IMG/VR virus record: IMGVR_UViG_2802429221_000013
Length of the DNA stretch: 31,751 nucleotides
Strand: one strand, 5' to 3'
Source: a virus
Lineage: Duplodnaviria > Heunggongvirae > Uroviricota > Caudoviricetes
Part shown: piece after piece, positions 1 to 31,751 of the stretch
Layout of the letters: the number at the start of each line of letters is the position of its first letter
How positions within the stretch are numbered: the first letter of the stretch is position 1
Notes under the pieces: model-generated
The model's input: only the letters and a program-made list of their open reading frames with translations
What the model was told of the DNA's origin: nothing
The model's database searches: none
Position numbers and translations under genes: made by a program

Positions 1-798
1 TTAGAACATCACTTTATGACCATACTGCTCAAGAATGCCTTTCACGCGCTCCATGGTCTCTTTCTTCGGTGGTTTCACGCCATCGAGTTTGTACTCTTCG
101 CCCATCGCCACCCATTTGTGTTTGCCCAGCTCATGGTAGGGGAGGAGTTCGATTTTTTCGACGTTACCCATATCACGGGTAAATTCACCAAGACGGTGGG
201 CGGAATCGTCGTCGTCAGACCAGCCAGGTACTACGACATAACGGATCCAGACTTTCACATTTTTGTTCGCCAGATATTTGGCAAACTCCAGCGTTCGGTG
301 GTTGGAAACGCCTACCAGATTTTGGTGGATCTCGTCGTTCATTTGTTTGAGATCAAGCATTACCAGGTCGGTTACTTCCAGCAGTTCATCAATCACCGGA
401 TCGTAACGACGAACAAAACCGTTGGTGTCCAGACAGGTATGAATGCCTTCTTTTTTGCAGGCGCGGAACCAGTCACGAACAAACTCAGCTTGCAGAATTG
501 CTTCGCCGCCAGATGCGGTAACGCCGCCACCTGAAGCGTTCATAAAGTGGCGATAGGTCACCACCTCTTTCATTAAATCTTCAACGGTAACTTCTTTACC
601 GCCATGCGTGTCCCAGGTGTCGCGGTTATGACAATACAGGCAGCGCATCAGGCAGCCTTGGAAAAAGGTGATAAAGCGAATACCCGGGCCGTCTACGGTT
701 CCACAGGATTCAAAGGAGTGAATGCGACCAATAACTGACTTGGTAGCCCCCGCCGCAGCGGTATTTTCTGTTGTATTACAATTAGTTAAATTACTCAT
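1..798 (-). CDS. pflA: Pyruvate formate-lyase 1 activating enzyme (radical SAM); host gene flanking the prophage
   Basis: Translation contains the radical-SAM CxxxCxxC motif ([12 protein letters not shown]) and matches PflA along its length from [22 protein letters not shown] onward. The open frame extends 19 codons upstream of the canonical MSVIG start, and the codon at 739-741 reads AAG (Lys), not ATG, so the true start is uncertain. Confidence 0.9.
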
Positions 799-829
799 AT
801 CGCTTCAATTGGCTCTAGTTAACTCTGGT

Positions 830-1825
830 TTATGGACGCATTATGGACATTCCTGACACCGGGTTAAGAGTCACAGCATCTTGTAAGAAATCCGGTGCAA
901 AGTGTGCGTAGGTCATAGTTTGCTGAATGTTAGAATGACCCAGGATGCGCTGCAATGTGATTATGTTACCTCCATTCATTATAAAATGTGTGGCAAATGT
1001 ATGCCTCAAAACATGCACTGCCTGTCCGTCAGGTAAATCGGGTTTTACTTCCCTGAGAGCGTTGCGCACTTTGTAGTAACTGGCATTAAAAAGCCTGCCA
1101 GAATTTTTGGTTTTGATCCGTTTAATCAAGTCCTGCGAAACGGGAATTGTCCTGCGCTTTCCGTTTTTGGTTTTCATAAACGTAACCATTTGGTTAATGA
1201 TGTGTTCAGCTTTTAAATTAGACACTTCACTCCAGCGTCCACCAGTAGAAAGGCAGACCAGAGTCGCATTTAATTCATCACCATCAAGCATGGATAGCAG
1301 CCGCGTAATCTCTTCACTGGACAAAAAAGCCATTTCCGTAACAGCTTCACGTAACCGCTTCACCTCACGGAACGGGTTGTGAGAGTGATATTCACCGGCG
1401 TCAATTAACTTGGTGAACATCCCGCTCATTATTGCCAGATGCCGATTTACGCTGGCTGGTTTTAGACCGTCGTTCATCATTACAACGCGATAATCAGTTA
1501 TCGTTTTCTTTGTTAGCTGGTCCGCCCTGGACACTCCCATCTCAGCAAATTTGGCAATTATTGTCGTCAAACGCCCCCGTTCAATATCTCCACGCTCATG
1601 TGATTTTCCGTGATATATCCACCATCTGCCTAACAACTCTGTAAGAGTTCGGCGGTCGGCCGGCTTCTCCAACCACTCTTTGTTGTGGTAGTTAACCAGG
1701 ACATGACGCTCGAATGCCTGGGCTTCACCTTTAGTTTTAAATTTCCGCCTGATACGTTTTCCATCTGCACCCTGCGGCCTGACGTCCACTTCATAACGAC
1801 CATCATCGAGCTTTTTAATAGACAT
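830..1825 (-). CDS. int: Phage integrase, tyrosine recombinase (P2 Int-like)
   Basis: 331-aa ORF with a C-terminal tyrosine-recombinase catalytic region (HVLRHTFATH, LGHSNIQQTMTYAH). Sits at the prophage edge next to C/cox as in P2. Stop codon is only 31 bp from the pflA ORF start. Confidence 0.9.
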   Translation of the reverse strand: MSIKKLDDGRYEVDVRPQGADGKRIRRKFKTKGEAQAFERHVLVNYHNKEWLEKPADRRTLTELLGRWWIYHGKSHERGDIERGRLTTIIAKFAEMGVSRADQLTKKTITDYRVVMMNDGLKPASVNRHLAIMSGMFTKLIDAGEYHSHNPFREVKRLREAVTEMAFLSSEEITRLLSMLDGDELNATLVCLSTGGRWSEVSNLKAEHIINQMVTFMKTKNGKRRTIPVSQDLIKRIKTKNSGRLFNASYYKVRNALREVKPDLPDGQAVHVLRHTFATHFIMNGGNIITLQRILGHSNIQQTMTYAHFAPDFLQDAVTLNPVSGMSIMRP

Positions 1826-1918: not shown

Positions 1919-2218
1919 TCAGCCAGTCTTTTGGTCTGAGTGGTGCAAGGTTGTTGAGTCTTGCCCAATGTGTGCGAGCGCCGGGGCTATTTGTCCGGCA
2001 GCGGGATCTGTCTCATCAAACATGAACCAGTCACGGTATTTTCTGAACCTTTCTACTTTAAAAAACTTCTTAGCATTTTCTAGGGACATCATAGCCTTAC
2101 CTGATTCATAACCTGCATATGTGGTGTAGTTGATGCCAGCTAGTTCAGCTACCTCCTTCATTTTCAGACGTTCAGACTCACGGATAAGCTTCAAACGTTC
2201 GCTAGTGTCAGTTGACAT
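1919..2218 (-). CDS. C: Immunity repressor C (P2 C-like, 99 aa)
   Basis: Using the internal ATG at 2216-2218 gives 99 aa, the P2 C length. C-terminus (GQIAPALAHIGQ...SDQKTG) resembles P2 C as I recall it. Divergent from cox. The longer ORF-track start at 2269 is probably an over-extension. Confidence 0.8.
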   Translation of the reverse strand: MSTDTSERLKLIRESERLKMKEVAELAGINYTTYAGYESGKAMMSLENAKKFFKVERFRKYRDWFMFDETDPAAGQIAPALAHIGQDSTTLHHSDQKTG

Positions 2219-2278
2219 AAATTCTCTAACCTCGTATTCTTTTGCATAGTTGATATGATTTATCAGCATCTAACGACT

Positions 2279-2321: not shown

Positions 2322-2678
2322 ATGAATGTCGGATCTGAAATTTGTGACGAGAAAAGACAAGAAGTTTCTGCTCTTAAAAAAAACAAGCGTGATTCCATTA
2401 AGTTGGCTGCGGATCCGTCAGATTTACTGTCGAAAGAGGGTTTTGCTCTTTACATCGGTAAGACTCCTCGTGCGGTGGCTGAAATGGCACGAGCTGGAAA
2501 GCTGCCAGCATTCTATATGACAGACCCGTTAAAGCCGGGCGGTCACGCTGAGTTATGGATTAATCGTCGTGAGTGGGACAAATATGCAGCTCAACTAGTC
2601 GATGAAGCTCCGACAGAATGGCATGACTGGAAGAACCGCATAAGTTACAGCAAATCCAGACATGGCCACGCGGCCTAA
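2322..2678 (+). CDS. cox: Cox-like excisionase / early-operon regulator
   Basis: First gene of the rightward early operon, divergent from C. Contains a GKLP...MTDP motif similar to P2 Cox. GAGGA ribosome-binding site upstream. At 118 aa it is longer than P2 Cox (91 aa), so the N-terminus is uncertain. Confidence 0.7.
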   Translation: MNVGSEICDEKRQEVSALKKNKRDSIKLAADPSDLLSKEGFALYIGKTPRAVAEMARAGKLPAFYMTDPLKPGGHAELWINRREWDKYAAQLVDEAPTEWHDWKNRISYSKSRHGHAA

Positions 2679-2687
2679 GGAGGAGCC

Positions 2688-3152
2688 ATGAGGCAAGATT
2701 TAAATAAAACATCGGTGACTATCATCAGAGGAAACCTTGAAGATGCATCACCATCTAACAGCCTGACTATTACGTATAGTGAGTTTGCTAATAGTACGAA
2801 AGAATATAAATCAGCCGATGAATTGAGAAAACAAAATATCATTTTGGATAATGATGAACTTGTTTTTATTAGTTCAGATGGTGATGAAGAAATTCTACGG
2901 CTGAATTTGAAATCTTTATTTCATGACTCTTTTTTGCGCATTAAATATGAATGCGTTGGTATGACCGTTCAAGAGCGCATGGAACTCGCTAAGGCTCTTC
3001 GTGAAACGATAATTTCTAAATCAGGCGATATAAATAGTATTAAATGGTCAATAGGGCTTGATGACTGGAAAAGTATTTTTGACATGATGACGCATCCGTA
3101 TAAACAGCATACGGATGCAAGATGCTATTTTAAAAATGATTTATATCAATAA
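2688..3152 (+). CDS. Hypothetical protein, AT-rich cargo ORF in the early operon
   Basis: 154-aa ORF with a strong ribosome-binding site (AAGGAGG, 4-5 nt before the ATG), starting 10 bp after the cox stop. AT-rich compared with flanking phage genes. No motif I recognise. Confidence 0.6.
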   Translation: MRQDLNKTSVTIIRGNLEDASPSNSLTITYSEFANSTKEYKSADELRKQNIILDNDELVFISSDGDEEILRLNLKSLFHDSFLRIKYECVGMTVQERMELAKALRETIISKSGDINSIKWSIGLDDWKSIFDMMTHPYKQHTDARCYFKNDLYQ

Positions 3153-7791: not shown

Positions 7792-8694
7792 ATGCGTGAG
7801 GCTGTTTCAATCGCTTGGTGGAATACGGGGATATCTCCTGCGGTTAAAAGAGAACGTTCTACTCCTGAAGAGTTGAAAGTAGCATTTGCTTTTATAGCAA
7901 ATATTTTGGTGAGTCATAATGTTGATATCCTATGTCTTGGAGAAATATCACCATCAGATATTAAGGTTTTAGAGGAAATGTTCTCAGAGGAAGGATTCAT
8001 AATATATGATGGGACTTTCACTGAAGGAAGCATAAAACATGATATGTGCATTCTTATAAAGCTAGCTACTTTCACTTACATTGATAGTAAAAGCATTGTT
8101 GAACAGTCACTGTTAGGAGCGGTAAGAGCCGGGCAAGAAGTTCAGCTCATGCATAATAACAGTGGGGATCATTTTTTTTTCTACATATCGCATTGGCCTA
8201 TGAGAGGTAATGATTCTAATGAAGAAATGCCAAAACGATATGAATTAGGAAAAGCTTTGCGAGGAGCAATCAGTAGATGTATAGAGGAAAAGTCAGGAAA
8301 GTATTTTATTCTTTTAGGTGATTACAATGACGATCCCTTTAATAAATCTCTTACACATGCTTTAGGTGCAACAAGGGATAGAGACTTAGTTGTCAAAAAA
8401 GATACTTTTTTATACAACCCTTTTTGGAATTTCATGGGGGCTTCAATTAGTTTTCCATCAGAAGATCATCATTTGAGTACCTACGGGACATATTATTACA
8501 GGGGCGGTGCTGTAACCCGTTGGCATACATTTGATCAAATTATTTTCTCCTCTTCATTCATTTCTGGTGGAGATTGGAATCTTTTGGAGGATGAGGTTAA
8601 AATCATTAACGATAAAGCCTTTAAAGAATTGGTGACAAGTCCCAAAACTAACTTTGATCATTTACCTGTTATCGCTGTAATTACGAGAGGTTAA
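7792..8694 (+). CDS. EEP-superfamily (endonuclease/exonuclease/phosphatase) protein; candidate defence effector
   Basis: 300-aa ORF, AT-rich. Motifs matching EEP catalytic signatures: WWN (N11), DILCLGE (E51), LLGDYNDDP (D177, N179), WHTFDQIIFS (D248), NFDHLPV (D289, H290). Sits in the A-to-cos slot where P2 has tin/old. Confidence 0.65.
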   Translation: MREAVSIAWWNTGISPAVKRERSTPEELKVAFAFIANILVSHNVDILCLGEISPSDIKVLEEMFSEEGFIIYDGTFTEGSIKHDMCILIKLATFTYIDSKSIVEQSLLGAVRAGQEVQLMHNNSGDHFFFYISHWPMRGNDSNEEMPKRYELGKALRGAISRCIEEKSGKYFILLGDYNDDPFNKSLTHALGATRDRDLVVKKDTFLYNPFWNFMGASISFPSEDHHLSTYGTYYYRGGAVTRWHTFDQIIFSSSFISGGDWNLLEDEVKIINDKAFKELVTSPKTNFDHLPVIAVITRG

Positions 8695-8698
8695 CAAA

Positions 8699-9151
8699 AT
8701 GGATTTCAAAAATTCATTAGCTGTGGGGATAGAGGCAGCAAAAAAAGCAAGATCAAATAAAGAAGAAATATTTAGTATTATCAGTGATTTAAGTGATAGT
8801 ATAAAGGAGTATAGTCAAGGGCGAGTGTTTTTGAAAATTACGAGTGAAAAAAAACTTGCATCTAATCAGACAGCGCTTACTGCCGTTGTGAGTTCGTTTA
8901 CAAACATCAACCCTTACATCGATTACGAAGCTCTATCGTTCGTAACTAAGAGAGAGCAAACAGAAGTTAAAGAGAACATTGCTGTTTGGAAGATAAATGA
9001 ATCAGATGGTTATCCATGTGTGATTTCTTATAACAAACGGGATGTTAGGTGCAAAGATAAAGAAACGTTAATCAAAGCGTTAAATGATCTAATGTCTGAT
9101 GCTAGCACCGGAGAAATTCTTTTAAGACTTATGAATACAGAGGAAGCATAA
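8699..9151 (+). CDS. Hypothetical protein, partner of the EEP protein
   Basis: 150-aa ORF starting 5 bp after the EEP stop, same AT-rich composition. No motif I recognise. Confidence 0.55.
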   Translation: MDFKNSLAVGIEAAKKARSNKEEIFSIISDLSDSIKEYSQGRVFLKITSEKKLASNQTALTAVVSSFTNINPYIDYEALSFVTKREQTEVKENIAVWKINESDGYPCVISYNKRDVRCKDKETLIKALNDLMSDASTGEILLRLMNTEEA

Positions 9152-23872: not shown

Positions 23873-24280
23873 ATGGCTAAGCGGATTCCTGGTGTTAGTA
23901 AAGAATGGTCTAACTATCTCCTTTGTTTATTATTACATATGTCTTTACCTCTCTTACCTTTGGGGTTCGAGACACTTGTGCGTTCCGATCACTTGCCATC
24001 AATACAAACATTAAATATTACAGCGGCGTTTTATGCGATCTCGATAGGGCTTTCTTCTAAGAACGTTGCTATGTTTGGTTTGGGTATATTCGTGAGCATT
24101 TGTTTCTCTGTTGTATTTGGGATTGTTTCTTCAAATCCTAATTCTGATCCTAATCTTAATTTTAATGATAACTTGTATTTTTATTCTCCAATTGCGTGTA
24201 TTGTTGCTATATTTGTTATACATGCATGTGAACGATATAACAGGCATGTTGCTGATTGTACACCATTTTTTGAGTTTTAA
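23873..24280 (+). CDS. Small polytopic membrane protein, cargo in the G-to-FI slot
   Basis: 135-aa ORF, very AT-rich. Three or four hydrophobic segments (LLCLLLHMSLPLLPLGF, AAFYAISIGL, MFGLGIFVSICFSVVFGIVS, IACIVAIFVIHAC). Weak ribosome-binding site, so the start is uncertain. Confidence 0.5.
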   Translation: MAKRIPGVSKEWSNYLLCLLLHMSLPLLPLGFETLVRSDHLPSIQTLNITAAFYAISIGLSSKNVAMFGLGIFVSICFSVVFGIVSSNPNSDPNLNFNDNLYFYSPIACIVAIFVIHACERYNRHVADCTPFFEF

Positions 24281-24289
24281 GGGGGTGCT

Positions 24290-24781
24290 ATGATTGATAC
24301 AATTATCCCAGTAATACTATCAATTCTCCCGGCAATACTATCTATATTTAGCTTAGTAGCTGTTTTTATAGGTGCATTAGTATCTATCAGGTCTGTTAAA
24401 AAAAGACGTGAAATAGAAGTTCAGCTTTTTAATGAGATAATAAATCAACAAATTAAACAAACTAAAAGCAACCGTAAAAAGGATCTTGAAAATAGTGTTA
24501 ATGAAATAGAAAATGAACTCAAGAGAAGAGTTGATATTTTGAATAAAATGCAAAAAGATCTAGAAGCAGTTTCAGAGAACAAATACTATTTTGATAAAGC
24601 AAAATATCTTCGAAATGTCAAGTATGGAGAGTATTTATTAGAGATAAATGAAGCTGTGAATAATATTGATAATAAAAACAAACACTTACTAAATAACGCT
24701 CTTAATCAAAGCTCTGAGATTGGAAAAGTAAGATATCTTGGAAGAATAACAAAGGAAGCACTGGAAAAAACAGTAGGCTGA
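24290..24781 (+). CDS. Membrane-anchored coiled-coil protein, cargo in the G-to-FI slot
   Basis: 163-aa ORF with a GGGGG ribosome-binding site, 9 bp after the upstream ORF. N-terminal transmembrane helix (IIPVILSILPAILSIFSLVAVFIGALVSI) followed by a highly charged K/E/N-rich helical region. AT-rich. Confidence 0.6.
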   Translation: MIDTIIPVILSILPAILSIFSLVAVFIGALVSIRSVKKRREIEVQLFNEIINQQIKQTKSNRKKDLENSVNEIENELKRRVDILNKMQKDLEAVSENKYYFDKAKYLRNVKYGEYLLEINEAVNNIDNKNKHLLNNALNQSSEIGKVRYLGRITKEALEKTVG

Positions 24782-31532: not shown

Positions 31533-31751
31533 ATGTTTCATTGTCCTTTATGCCAGCATGCCGCACATGCGCGTACAAGTCGCTATATCACTGACACGAC
31601 AAAAGAGCGTTATCACCAGTGTCAGAACGTGAATTGCAGCGCCACGTTCATCACTTATGAGTCGGTACAGCGATACATCGTGAAGCCGGGAGAAGTCCAC
31701 GCCGTAAGGCCGCACCCATTGCCGTCAGGGCAGCAAATTATGTGGATGTAA
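31533..31751 (+). CDS. ogr: Late-gene transcription activator Ogr (zinc finger)
   Basis: The internal ATG at 31533 follows a GAGGT ribosome-binding site and gives 72 aa starting MFHCPLCQHAAHARTSRYITDTTKERYHQCQNVNCSATF, with CxxC...CxxxxC zinc-finger cysteines as in P2 Ogr. Last gene before the expected right attachment site. Confidence 0.9.
   Translation: MFHCPLCQHAAHARTSRYITDTTKERYHQCQNVNCSATFITYESVQRYIVKPGEVHAVRPHPLPSGQQIMWM

Follow-up and report, generated by a model that had tools for sequence, protein, structure and literature searches.

We analysed a stretch of 31,751 nucleotides (nt; hereafter the window) from the virus record IMGVR_UViG_2802429221_000013, at the left end of which pflA adjoins the integrase gene (int) of a P2-like prophage. 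PflA activates pyruvate formate-lyase (PFL), the central enzyme of mixed-acid fermentation in enterobacteria. The junction was found to be the left attachment site (attL) of the prophage, and the bacterial attachment site (attB) spans the start codon of pflA. Upon integration the native start codon and the DNA upstream of it are separated from pflA, and the remainder of the gene is joined in frame to a leader that belongs to the phage attachment site (attP). We consider it likely that this leader of a Peduovirus-type prophage is a phage-borne start by which the interrupted gene is rescued.

Attachment sites at the start codon of pflA

The junction consists of the following features, given with their positions in the window:
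1-798, minus strand: chimeric pflA open reading frame (ORF) of 265 amino acids (aa), 20 phage-derived codons joined to native codons 2-246
727-739, minus-strand sequence: common core of the attachment sites, GTCAGTTATTGGT, comprising the G of the former start codon and codons 2-5 (S V I G)
739-741, minus strand: AAG at the position of the native ATG, which is ATG in K-12 and in the right attachment site (attR), and AAG in attL and attP
742-798, minus strand: phage-arm leader, an ATG (796-798) and 18 codons in the pflA frame, part of the attP of free phages
799-829, minus strand: spacer of 31 nt between int and the leader; it contains a weak Shine-Dalgarno-like GAAG (803-806) and lacks a terminator
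830-1825, minus strand: ORF of a tyrosine integrase (Int) of 331 aa, stop TAA at 830-832, co-oriented with pflA and directly upstream of it
830-837 and 841-848, minus strand: two direct repeats GTCCATAA, 11 bp apart, found by motif search, candidate arm-type Int sites of the P arm

The initial annotation of the window had placed the integrase stop at 830 and the start of the pflA frame at 798, and had read an AAG at 739-741 with the frame open to the ATG at 796-798, which adds 20 residues. All of these coordinates were found to be correct, and the spacer of 31 nt was confirmed by the sequence. It had also reasoned that the attachment core must overlap or abut the 5' end of pflA, and a core of 13 bp was located there. 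When the window was aligned to the unoccupied locus of K-12, a comparison which the annotation had called for, the homology was observed to break off within the pflA start codon. The K-12 sequence reads ...CACCGCA ATG TCA GTT ATT GGT CGC and the window reads ...GCTACC AAG TCA GTT ATT GGT CGC, and the extension is not native.

Our alignments show that GTCAGTTATTGGT is the sole block identical in attL, attR, attB of K-12 (NC_000913.3 951066-951078) and attP of three free phages, with partial matches flanking it on the outside. The core spans the G of the ATG and pflA codons 2-5, which places attB within the coding region of pflA itself. In the three free phages (Escherichia phage S164, Peduovirus P24A7b and Yersinia phage vB_YpM_46), attP is located between ogr and int and has the same layout, namely the int stop, 31 nt, ATG, 18 codons, AAG, GTCAGTTATTGGT and GACATTTTTTGA.

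The repeat of the core had been predicted to lie just beyond ogr and outside the window. The last base of the window is the end of the ogr stop codon, and attR was read instead in the E. coli lysogen NZ_CP082824, where a P2-like prophage of 31.75 kb sits between pflB and pflA and where int and the left arm are 99.6% identical to those of the window. In this lysogen the core was found about 110 nt past ogr; beyond it lie the DNA that natively precedes pflA and then pflB. The attR beside ogr reads native upstream...ATG TCA GTT ATT GGT GAC ATT TTT TGA. The native pflA promoter region, its Shine-Dalgarno sequence (GGAG) and the AT of the ATG are thus all located at attR, 31.75 kb from pflA, which agrees with the suggestion that integration has replaced the native 5' end and promoter. 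We noticed that the native promoter region at attR (L003:6840-6960, in NZ_CP082824) precedes a stub of eight codons, MSVIGDIF*, and that a terminator-like hairpin follows the stub at L003 6932-6955, just before the convergent ogr. The arrangement of attL, attR, attB and attP is of the textbook Campbell type. Because attR keeps the ATG, precise excision would restore the native start codon under the Campbell model.

The first of the two GTCCATAA repeats (830-837) includes the int stop codon. Related TCCACA-type repeats in the same orientation were observed in the P' arm of attP, and both sets are candidate arm-binding sites of Int, as judged from their sequence and placement. A site for integration host factor (IHF) was sought in attP, where nothing matches the consensus at 12 or more of 13 positions; the conserved TTGTA of the leader was dropped as an IHF candidate for this reason. 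We also do not claim that the AAG is kept through an ACCAA...TTGGT dyad for core binding by Int, because this dyad fits the E. coli-type arm and not the arms of Scandinavium, Citrobacter or Salmonella.

The phage-derived leader in lysogens and in decayed remnants

Residues 21-265 of the chimeric ORF are 100% identical to the crystallised E. coli PflA (PDB 3C8F). The radical S-adenosylmethionine (SAM) domain is kept at full length and is preceded by an in-frame ATG without an intervening stop, so that the gene is not disrupted in the sense of lacking a full-length product. The same 265-aa pflA is listed by RefSeq in an E. coli lysogen, and at least 1000 contigs encode the exact protein of the window, without a single amino-acid change. 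At attL the sole canonical in-frame start is the phage ATG, which lies 60 nt ahead of pflA codon 2, and the stretch from 798 to Met51 contains no further in-frame ATG, GTG or TTG. An AAG at the native start position was also observed in Scandinavium, Citrobacter, Klebsiella and Salmonella, and most attP arms have it; Rahnella-type arms have ATG at this position and one remnant has GTG. In a medium-quality AlphaFold model (mean predicted local distance difference test score, pLDDT, of 69), residues 1-18 have pLDDT below 50 and no secondary structure, and the leader of 20 residues is probably disordered. The native PflA of Providencia (L096:3361-3560), of 262 aa, carries an unrelated, threonine-rich N-terminal extension of 17 residues; its gene has a good Shine-Dalgarno sequence (GGAG) and lies directly downstream of pflB with no integrase remnant. 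N-terminal extensions are therefore apparently tolerated by PflA.

The phage-type junction is widespread. Among 5,426 complete E. coli genomes it was found in 405 and the native junction in the other 5,021, with none left over. Integrases that are 76-100% identical to that of the window all lie directly upstream of pflA, and each is accompanied by an open leader of 20 codons that starts with ATG. They were observed in E. albertii, E. coli, K. pneumoniae, Citrobacter portucalensis and three Scandinavium species, and furthermore in Pseudescherichia vulneris, Rahnella and several metagenomic contigs. In a scan of IMG/VR few junctions could be recovered, as most prophage contigs there end at the int stop, and a short N-terminal protein query, which returned mostly fragments, added two further leader variants. 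The edge of this pflA-specific clade is marked by an IMG/VR contig (L090:2494-2800) on which an integrase about 70% identical to that of the window adjoins pyrE and not pflA. A similar arm repeat, GTCCATA, is present on this contig, and its pyrE site suggests that integration specificity has switched within this integrase family. The initial annotation had anticipated neither the conservation of the frame-preserving leader across the pflA-specific clade nor its persistence in decayed remnants such as the sopD2 islet of Salmonella, described below. In one metagenomic lysogen (ERZ1309832, L107:1501-2238), the leader-pflA ORF has an in-frame internal deletion of 20 residues, and the deleted region presumably includes the GGE SAM-binding region.

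The 12 leaders compared differ at up to about half of their positions (MSNLTDCISTESTTESGGHM is one example). All 12 nevertheless have 20 codons, an ATG start and no in-frame stop, and the other frames contain 1-5 stops each. For a single sequence the frame stayed open in 12-35% of dinucleotide shuffles; the open frame in one sequence alone is not compelling, and the comparative evidence is much stronger. In a neutral simulation, the 169 observed substitutions were placed randomly on a minimum spanning tree that joined the 12 sequences. The probability that no stop arises anywhere was 0.007 and the probability that the ATG survives as well was about 2e-7, although both values are rough because the lineages are related. 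Pairwise differences between leaders number 82, 121 and 126 at the three codon positions. As this shows no excess at third positions, it is the frame and its translatability that are conserved and not the peptide.

In four remnants the int gene has decayed, yet pflA remains joined to an open leader that starts with ATG. Since int has decayed in these remnants, attP function no longer constrains the leader DNA there. As an example, in a Rouxiella aceris-like contig (L099, 3069-3560, metagenome SRR23300977) pflB is followed by 431 bp and then by leader-pflA; only the last 60 or so int codons are recognisable, with a stop among them, and GTG occupies the native start position. The PflA core of this contig is 100% identical to Rouxiella aceris WP_169402947.1, which RefSeq starts at the GTG (246 aa) though the phage-derived ATG and the open leader remain. 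On L102 the int remnant is barely recognisable, gntP lies upstream and the leader ATG is preceded by a better Shine-Dalgarno sequence (AAGGA). An int remnant is also present on L094, a Serratia-like, AT-rich contig.

In Salmonella enterica, where the arrangement is known from two genomes, the order was observed to be pflB, a terminator, sopD2, the decayed 3' end of int, the P arm, ATG, the leader of 20 codons, AAG and pflA. The sopD2 gene was identified by its match to PDB 5CQ9 (E = 2.6e-194; L105:1970-3500 and L108:2436-3979), and an exact-sequence look-up of the Salmonella proteins returned rare alleles only. The int remnant corresponds to residues 254-331 (37% identity) and contains stops, and its DNA clearly aligns to the phage. 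The two genomes share one remnant and yet are deeply diverged. Between them the ratio of nonsynonymous to synonymous substitution rates (dN/dS) of the pflA core is 0.017 at dS = 0.51, and that of the leader is 0.32, with 14 of 60 nt differing. The value for pflA indicates strong purifying selection during a time when the sole start codon of the gene was phage-derived.

We noticed in addition that the last 210 nt before the leader ATG, which lie within the dead int (L105:3291-3500 versus L108:3771-3979), differ at 7% of sites, as compared to 25% of pflA third codon positions and 30-50% of sites further upstream (binomial 2e-11). This conserved block suggests a functional promoter or 5' untranslated region; a conserved consensus sigma-70 promoter was not found in it. 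Judging by gene order and the int remnant, the sopD2 islet looks like the wreck of a prophage once integrated at the pflA start codon, and sopD2 may have arrived as phage cargo.

Expression of pflA and alternative explanations

The initial annotation had proposed that pflA expression now depends on the phage arm. For translation this holds, since the sole canonical start is phage-derived, and for transcription the dependence is probable. In P2, C and int are co-transcribed from Pc. The C, int and pflA genes of the window are co-oriented and no terminator was found on the minus strand in positions 1-2500. Taken together with P2 Pc-C-int transcription, this makes read-through the simplest source of pflA transcription, and by analogy to P2 the lysogenic Pc-C-int transcript probably supplies it. 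The least certain part of the model is that pflA is transcribed from the lysogenic operon, and a weak promoter in the 3' end of int may contribute. A CATAAT match at 840-845 coincides with a candidate Int arm site. The spacing of 31 nt between int and the leader is the same in the Citrobacter, Klebsiella and L107 lysogens. The RNA around the leader start was not more structured than that of shuffled sequences (z = +1.23), and an Rfam scan returned nothing relevant.

We propose the following mechanism. Recombination within GTCAGTTATTGGT carries the native pflA promoter, Shine-Dalgarno sequence and AT to the far prophage end, attR, where they head the stub MSVIGDIF*, which runs into the terminator-like hairpin before ogr. 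At attL the P arm would provide a replacement ATG exactly 60 nt upstream, in frame and free of stops. The product would be an active PflA with a leader of 20 residues, translated from the phage ATG and transcribed from phage DNA, most likely by Pc-C-int read-through. A gene-rescue cassette built into attP would allow the phage to use a site in an important anaerobic gene without inactivating pflA. The gene is probably functional in the lysogen, to which the dN/dS of 0.017 in Salmonella and the identical protein on at least 1000 contigs point indirectly.

Other explanations were considered as well. It had been suggested that the strain naturally uses a longer PflA, in which case the extension and the AAG would be native and the core would lie wholly in the intergenic region. 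The 265-aa form is indeed annotated as ordinary pflA by the Prokaryotic Genome Annotation Pipeline, and Providencia does have a native longer PflA. However, the empty sites of K-12 and of the 5,021 E. coli genomes show ATG preceded by unrelated DNA, the extension belongs to the attP of free phages, and attR holds the native promoter, Shine-Dalgarno sequence, ATG and core. The empty-site comparison refutes this explanation and we give it practically no credence. It is quite improbable, too, that PflA is made in lysogens from a start at or near the native position, by means of a G-rich run about 7 nt upstream, with the upstream ORF being incidental or serving in coupling. Shine-Dalgarno-like G-runs (GGGG or GAGG) were observed 6-9 nt before the native-position codon in several arms; the positions considered were 739-760 of the window (minus strand) and the homologous sites in L008, L010, L094, L105 and L107. 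Such a start would also suit the ATG of the Rahnella-type arms and the GTG of the Rouxiella-like remnant, where RefSeq begins the protein of 246 aa. The G-run is missing, however, from the Citrobacter arm and from the arm of the Salmonella contig L108. Moreover, AAG is the codon found in the window as well as in the versions from E. coli, Klebsiella, Citrobacter, Scandinavium and Salmonella; no other in-frame ATG, GTG or TTG precedes Met51, and AAG is a very poor initiation codon.

Several observations weigh against a phage-borne rescue start. The Shine-Dalgarno sequence of the leader ATG is weak (GAAG), and scans upstream in the window, Salmonella and other lineages revealed no conserved sigma-70 promoter, with weak and non-conserved matches only. 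The pflA of L094 is possibly frameshifted and that of L107 has the deletion described above, at a low coverage of 7.7x; for both, either genuine decay (with inactivation in L107) or misassembly is conceivable. The fixed length of 60 nt and part of the conservation in intact phages could reflect attP geometry and not coding. Furthermore, the P2-like prophage ECA29 of Pectobacterium atrosepticum SCRI1043 is described, in the review passages that treat it, as disrupting pflA (PMC13492144, PMC13566846, citing Evans et al. 2010). If the same were true of the window, lysogens would be without PflA or nearly so and the open frame would be a by-product of constraints on attP. The removal of the native promoter, ribosome-binding site and start, the weakness of the new Shine-Dalgarno sequence with no evident promoter, and the damaged pflA of L094 and L107 would fit such inactivation, and a chance in-frame ATG before any stop is not rare in a single sequence (P(open) 0.12-0.35). 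We nevertheless judge inactivation to be unlikely. Frame and ATG are kept in 12 of 12 leaders, including remnants freed of attP constraints; the Salmonella pflA, with a phage-derived start only, has evolved at a dN/dS of 0.017; and the protein is identical and undamaged on at least 1000 contigs. In addition, Salmonella produces formate by PFL, for which PflA is required.

A rescue start thus remains our preferred explanation. A wider scenario is put forward only tentatively, as something possible rather than probable. In it the P arm of attP would have evolved as a portable 5' end of pflA that brings promoter input, a start codon and a disordered leader, rewiring PFL activation to lysogenic transcription, and would have been domesticated repeatedly once prophages had decayed. 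The Salmonella sopD2 islet would be one such wreck with sopD2 as its cargo, and PflA would be made there from the phage start and a regulatory block in the dead int.

The prophage and its relation to known systems

Over 4.8 kb the window is 98.8% identical to E. albertii NBRC 107761, which makes Escherichia albertii the probable host. The pflA of the window differs from that of K-12 with a DNA identity of 93.8% and zero amino-acid changes. Phages that match the window at 97-98% identity are classed as Peduovirus. The prophage of NZ_CP082824 has the P2-type gene order of int, C, cox, replication, portal/terminase, capsid, lysis, tail, D and ogr, and the ORF map, cox, C and ogr of the window agree with it. 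The homologue of int in an E. coli prophage (99.6% identical) is annotated as a tyrosine-type recombinase, and the Pfam families PF00589 and PF24624 are present on the integrase homologues. Further features of the prophage are:
1919-2218, minus strand: C-type immunity repressor of 99 aa (Pfam HTH_3, 6.6e-08), on the same strand as int and pflA, presumably encoded by the first gene of the Pc-C-int transcript
2212-2240, plus strand: early-promoter-like site TTGACA-17-TATTCT, from a promoter scan
2322-2678, plus strand: cox (Pfam Phage_Cox, 8.6e-29)
31533-31751, plus strand: ogr, the late activator and last prophage gene, identified by translation

The early-promoter-like site and cox (2212-2678) form a P2-type lysis/lysogeny switch, and a homologue of the C repressor is annotated with 300 nt in an E. 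coli lysogen. Cargo was observed at 7792-9151 (plus strand), flanked by replication gene A and the portal gene, at the P2 'old/tin'-type hotspot. It comprises an Endonuclease/Exonuclease/Phosphatase-family protein of 300 aa (PF19580, 1.2e-16) and a partner of 150 aa with a weak BsuPI-like match only. The pair could be a toxin/immunity or defence pair; PADLOC returned no matches on the cargo ORFs of the window. Two ORFs of 135 and 163 aa at 23873-24781 (plus strand), after the tail-fibre assembly gene, gave no Pfam match above the curated cutoff, the second having a weak match below it. The same was true of an ORF of 154 aa after cox (2688-3152, plus strand), which had no PADLOC match either. 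These ORFs are likely to be phage cargo without an assigned family.

The junction is carried by about 7.5% of complete E. coli genomes and by lysogens of Klebsiella, Citrobacter, E. albertii and other genera. These carriers and the two Salmonella genomes would make a PflA with a phage-derived start, a different N-terminus and different upstream control. For annotation, the calls of 265, 258 and 246 aa for one locus are inconsistent. In genetic work the curing or deletion of the prophage would alter pflA, and in studies of anaerobic physiology the upstream control of pflA would differ between lysogens and non-lysogens. The case further suggests a way for phages to settle at the 5' end of a gene at no cost in fitness, and it offers Salmonella evolution a concrete and testable origin for the sopD2 islet.

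In its integrase, attP position, gene order and Campbell-type junctions the element is a typical P2-like temperate phage (Peduoviridae). The prophage shares with phage P2 the gene order int-C-cox...D-ogr, the position of attP between int and ogr, direct repeats in both arms and a short core that is partly matched outside the block of identity. P2 is known to integrate at locI and at secondary sites outside protein-coding starts, whereas the prophage of the window targets the opening codons of a protein-coding gene, and its P arm serves as coding sequence too. Element e14 and phage 21, which integrate in icd, and many phages of tRNA or transfer-messenger RNA (tmRNA) genes have an attP that brings a substitute gene end, and in these cases likewise a phage-borne end keeps the target gene intact. 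They replace the 3' end with a near-copy, however, whereas the phage of the window replaces the 5' end with unrelated sequence. Unlike in the icd and tRNA cases, the gene receives a new start, a new leader of 20 residues and new upstream control, so that both product and regulation would be changed. SopE-phi, a P2-family phage that carries the type III effector gene sopE in Salmonella, is a precedent for a P2-like phage that brings a type III effector; in the arrangement described above, sopD2 lies between pflB and the int remnant. SopE-phi is intact and at another site, whereas only the 3' remnant of int, the P arm and the leader survive at sopD2.

In the literature that was found, as far as its passages go, ECA29 is the sole published pflA-associated P2-like integration. 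It resembles the prophage of the window in being P2-like and located at pflA, and differs in being described as a disruption; the review texts that treat it mention no replacement start, conserved leader or attachment core in the passages concerned (PMC13492144, PMC13566846). Full-text literature searches gave no description of the junction, of the conserved leader or of a phage origin for the Salmonella pflA start and sopD2 neighbourhood, which is not proof of novelty; matches on BL21, on NCTC 86 and in papers on sopD2 had no bearing on the junction. The nearest functional analogue is the HK022 prophage at torS, which likewise integrates at the start or upstream region of a host gene of anaerobic metabolism and, according to the review passage on it, exchanges the native promoter for a phage promoter (PMC13492144, its reference 81). 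As described there, the exchange at torS concerns the promoter only, whereas at pflA the start codon and the N-terminus are exchanged as well, together with a transcription that would likewise be driven by the phage.

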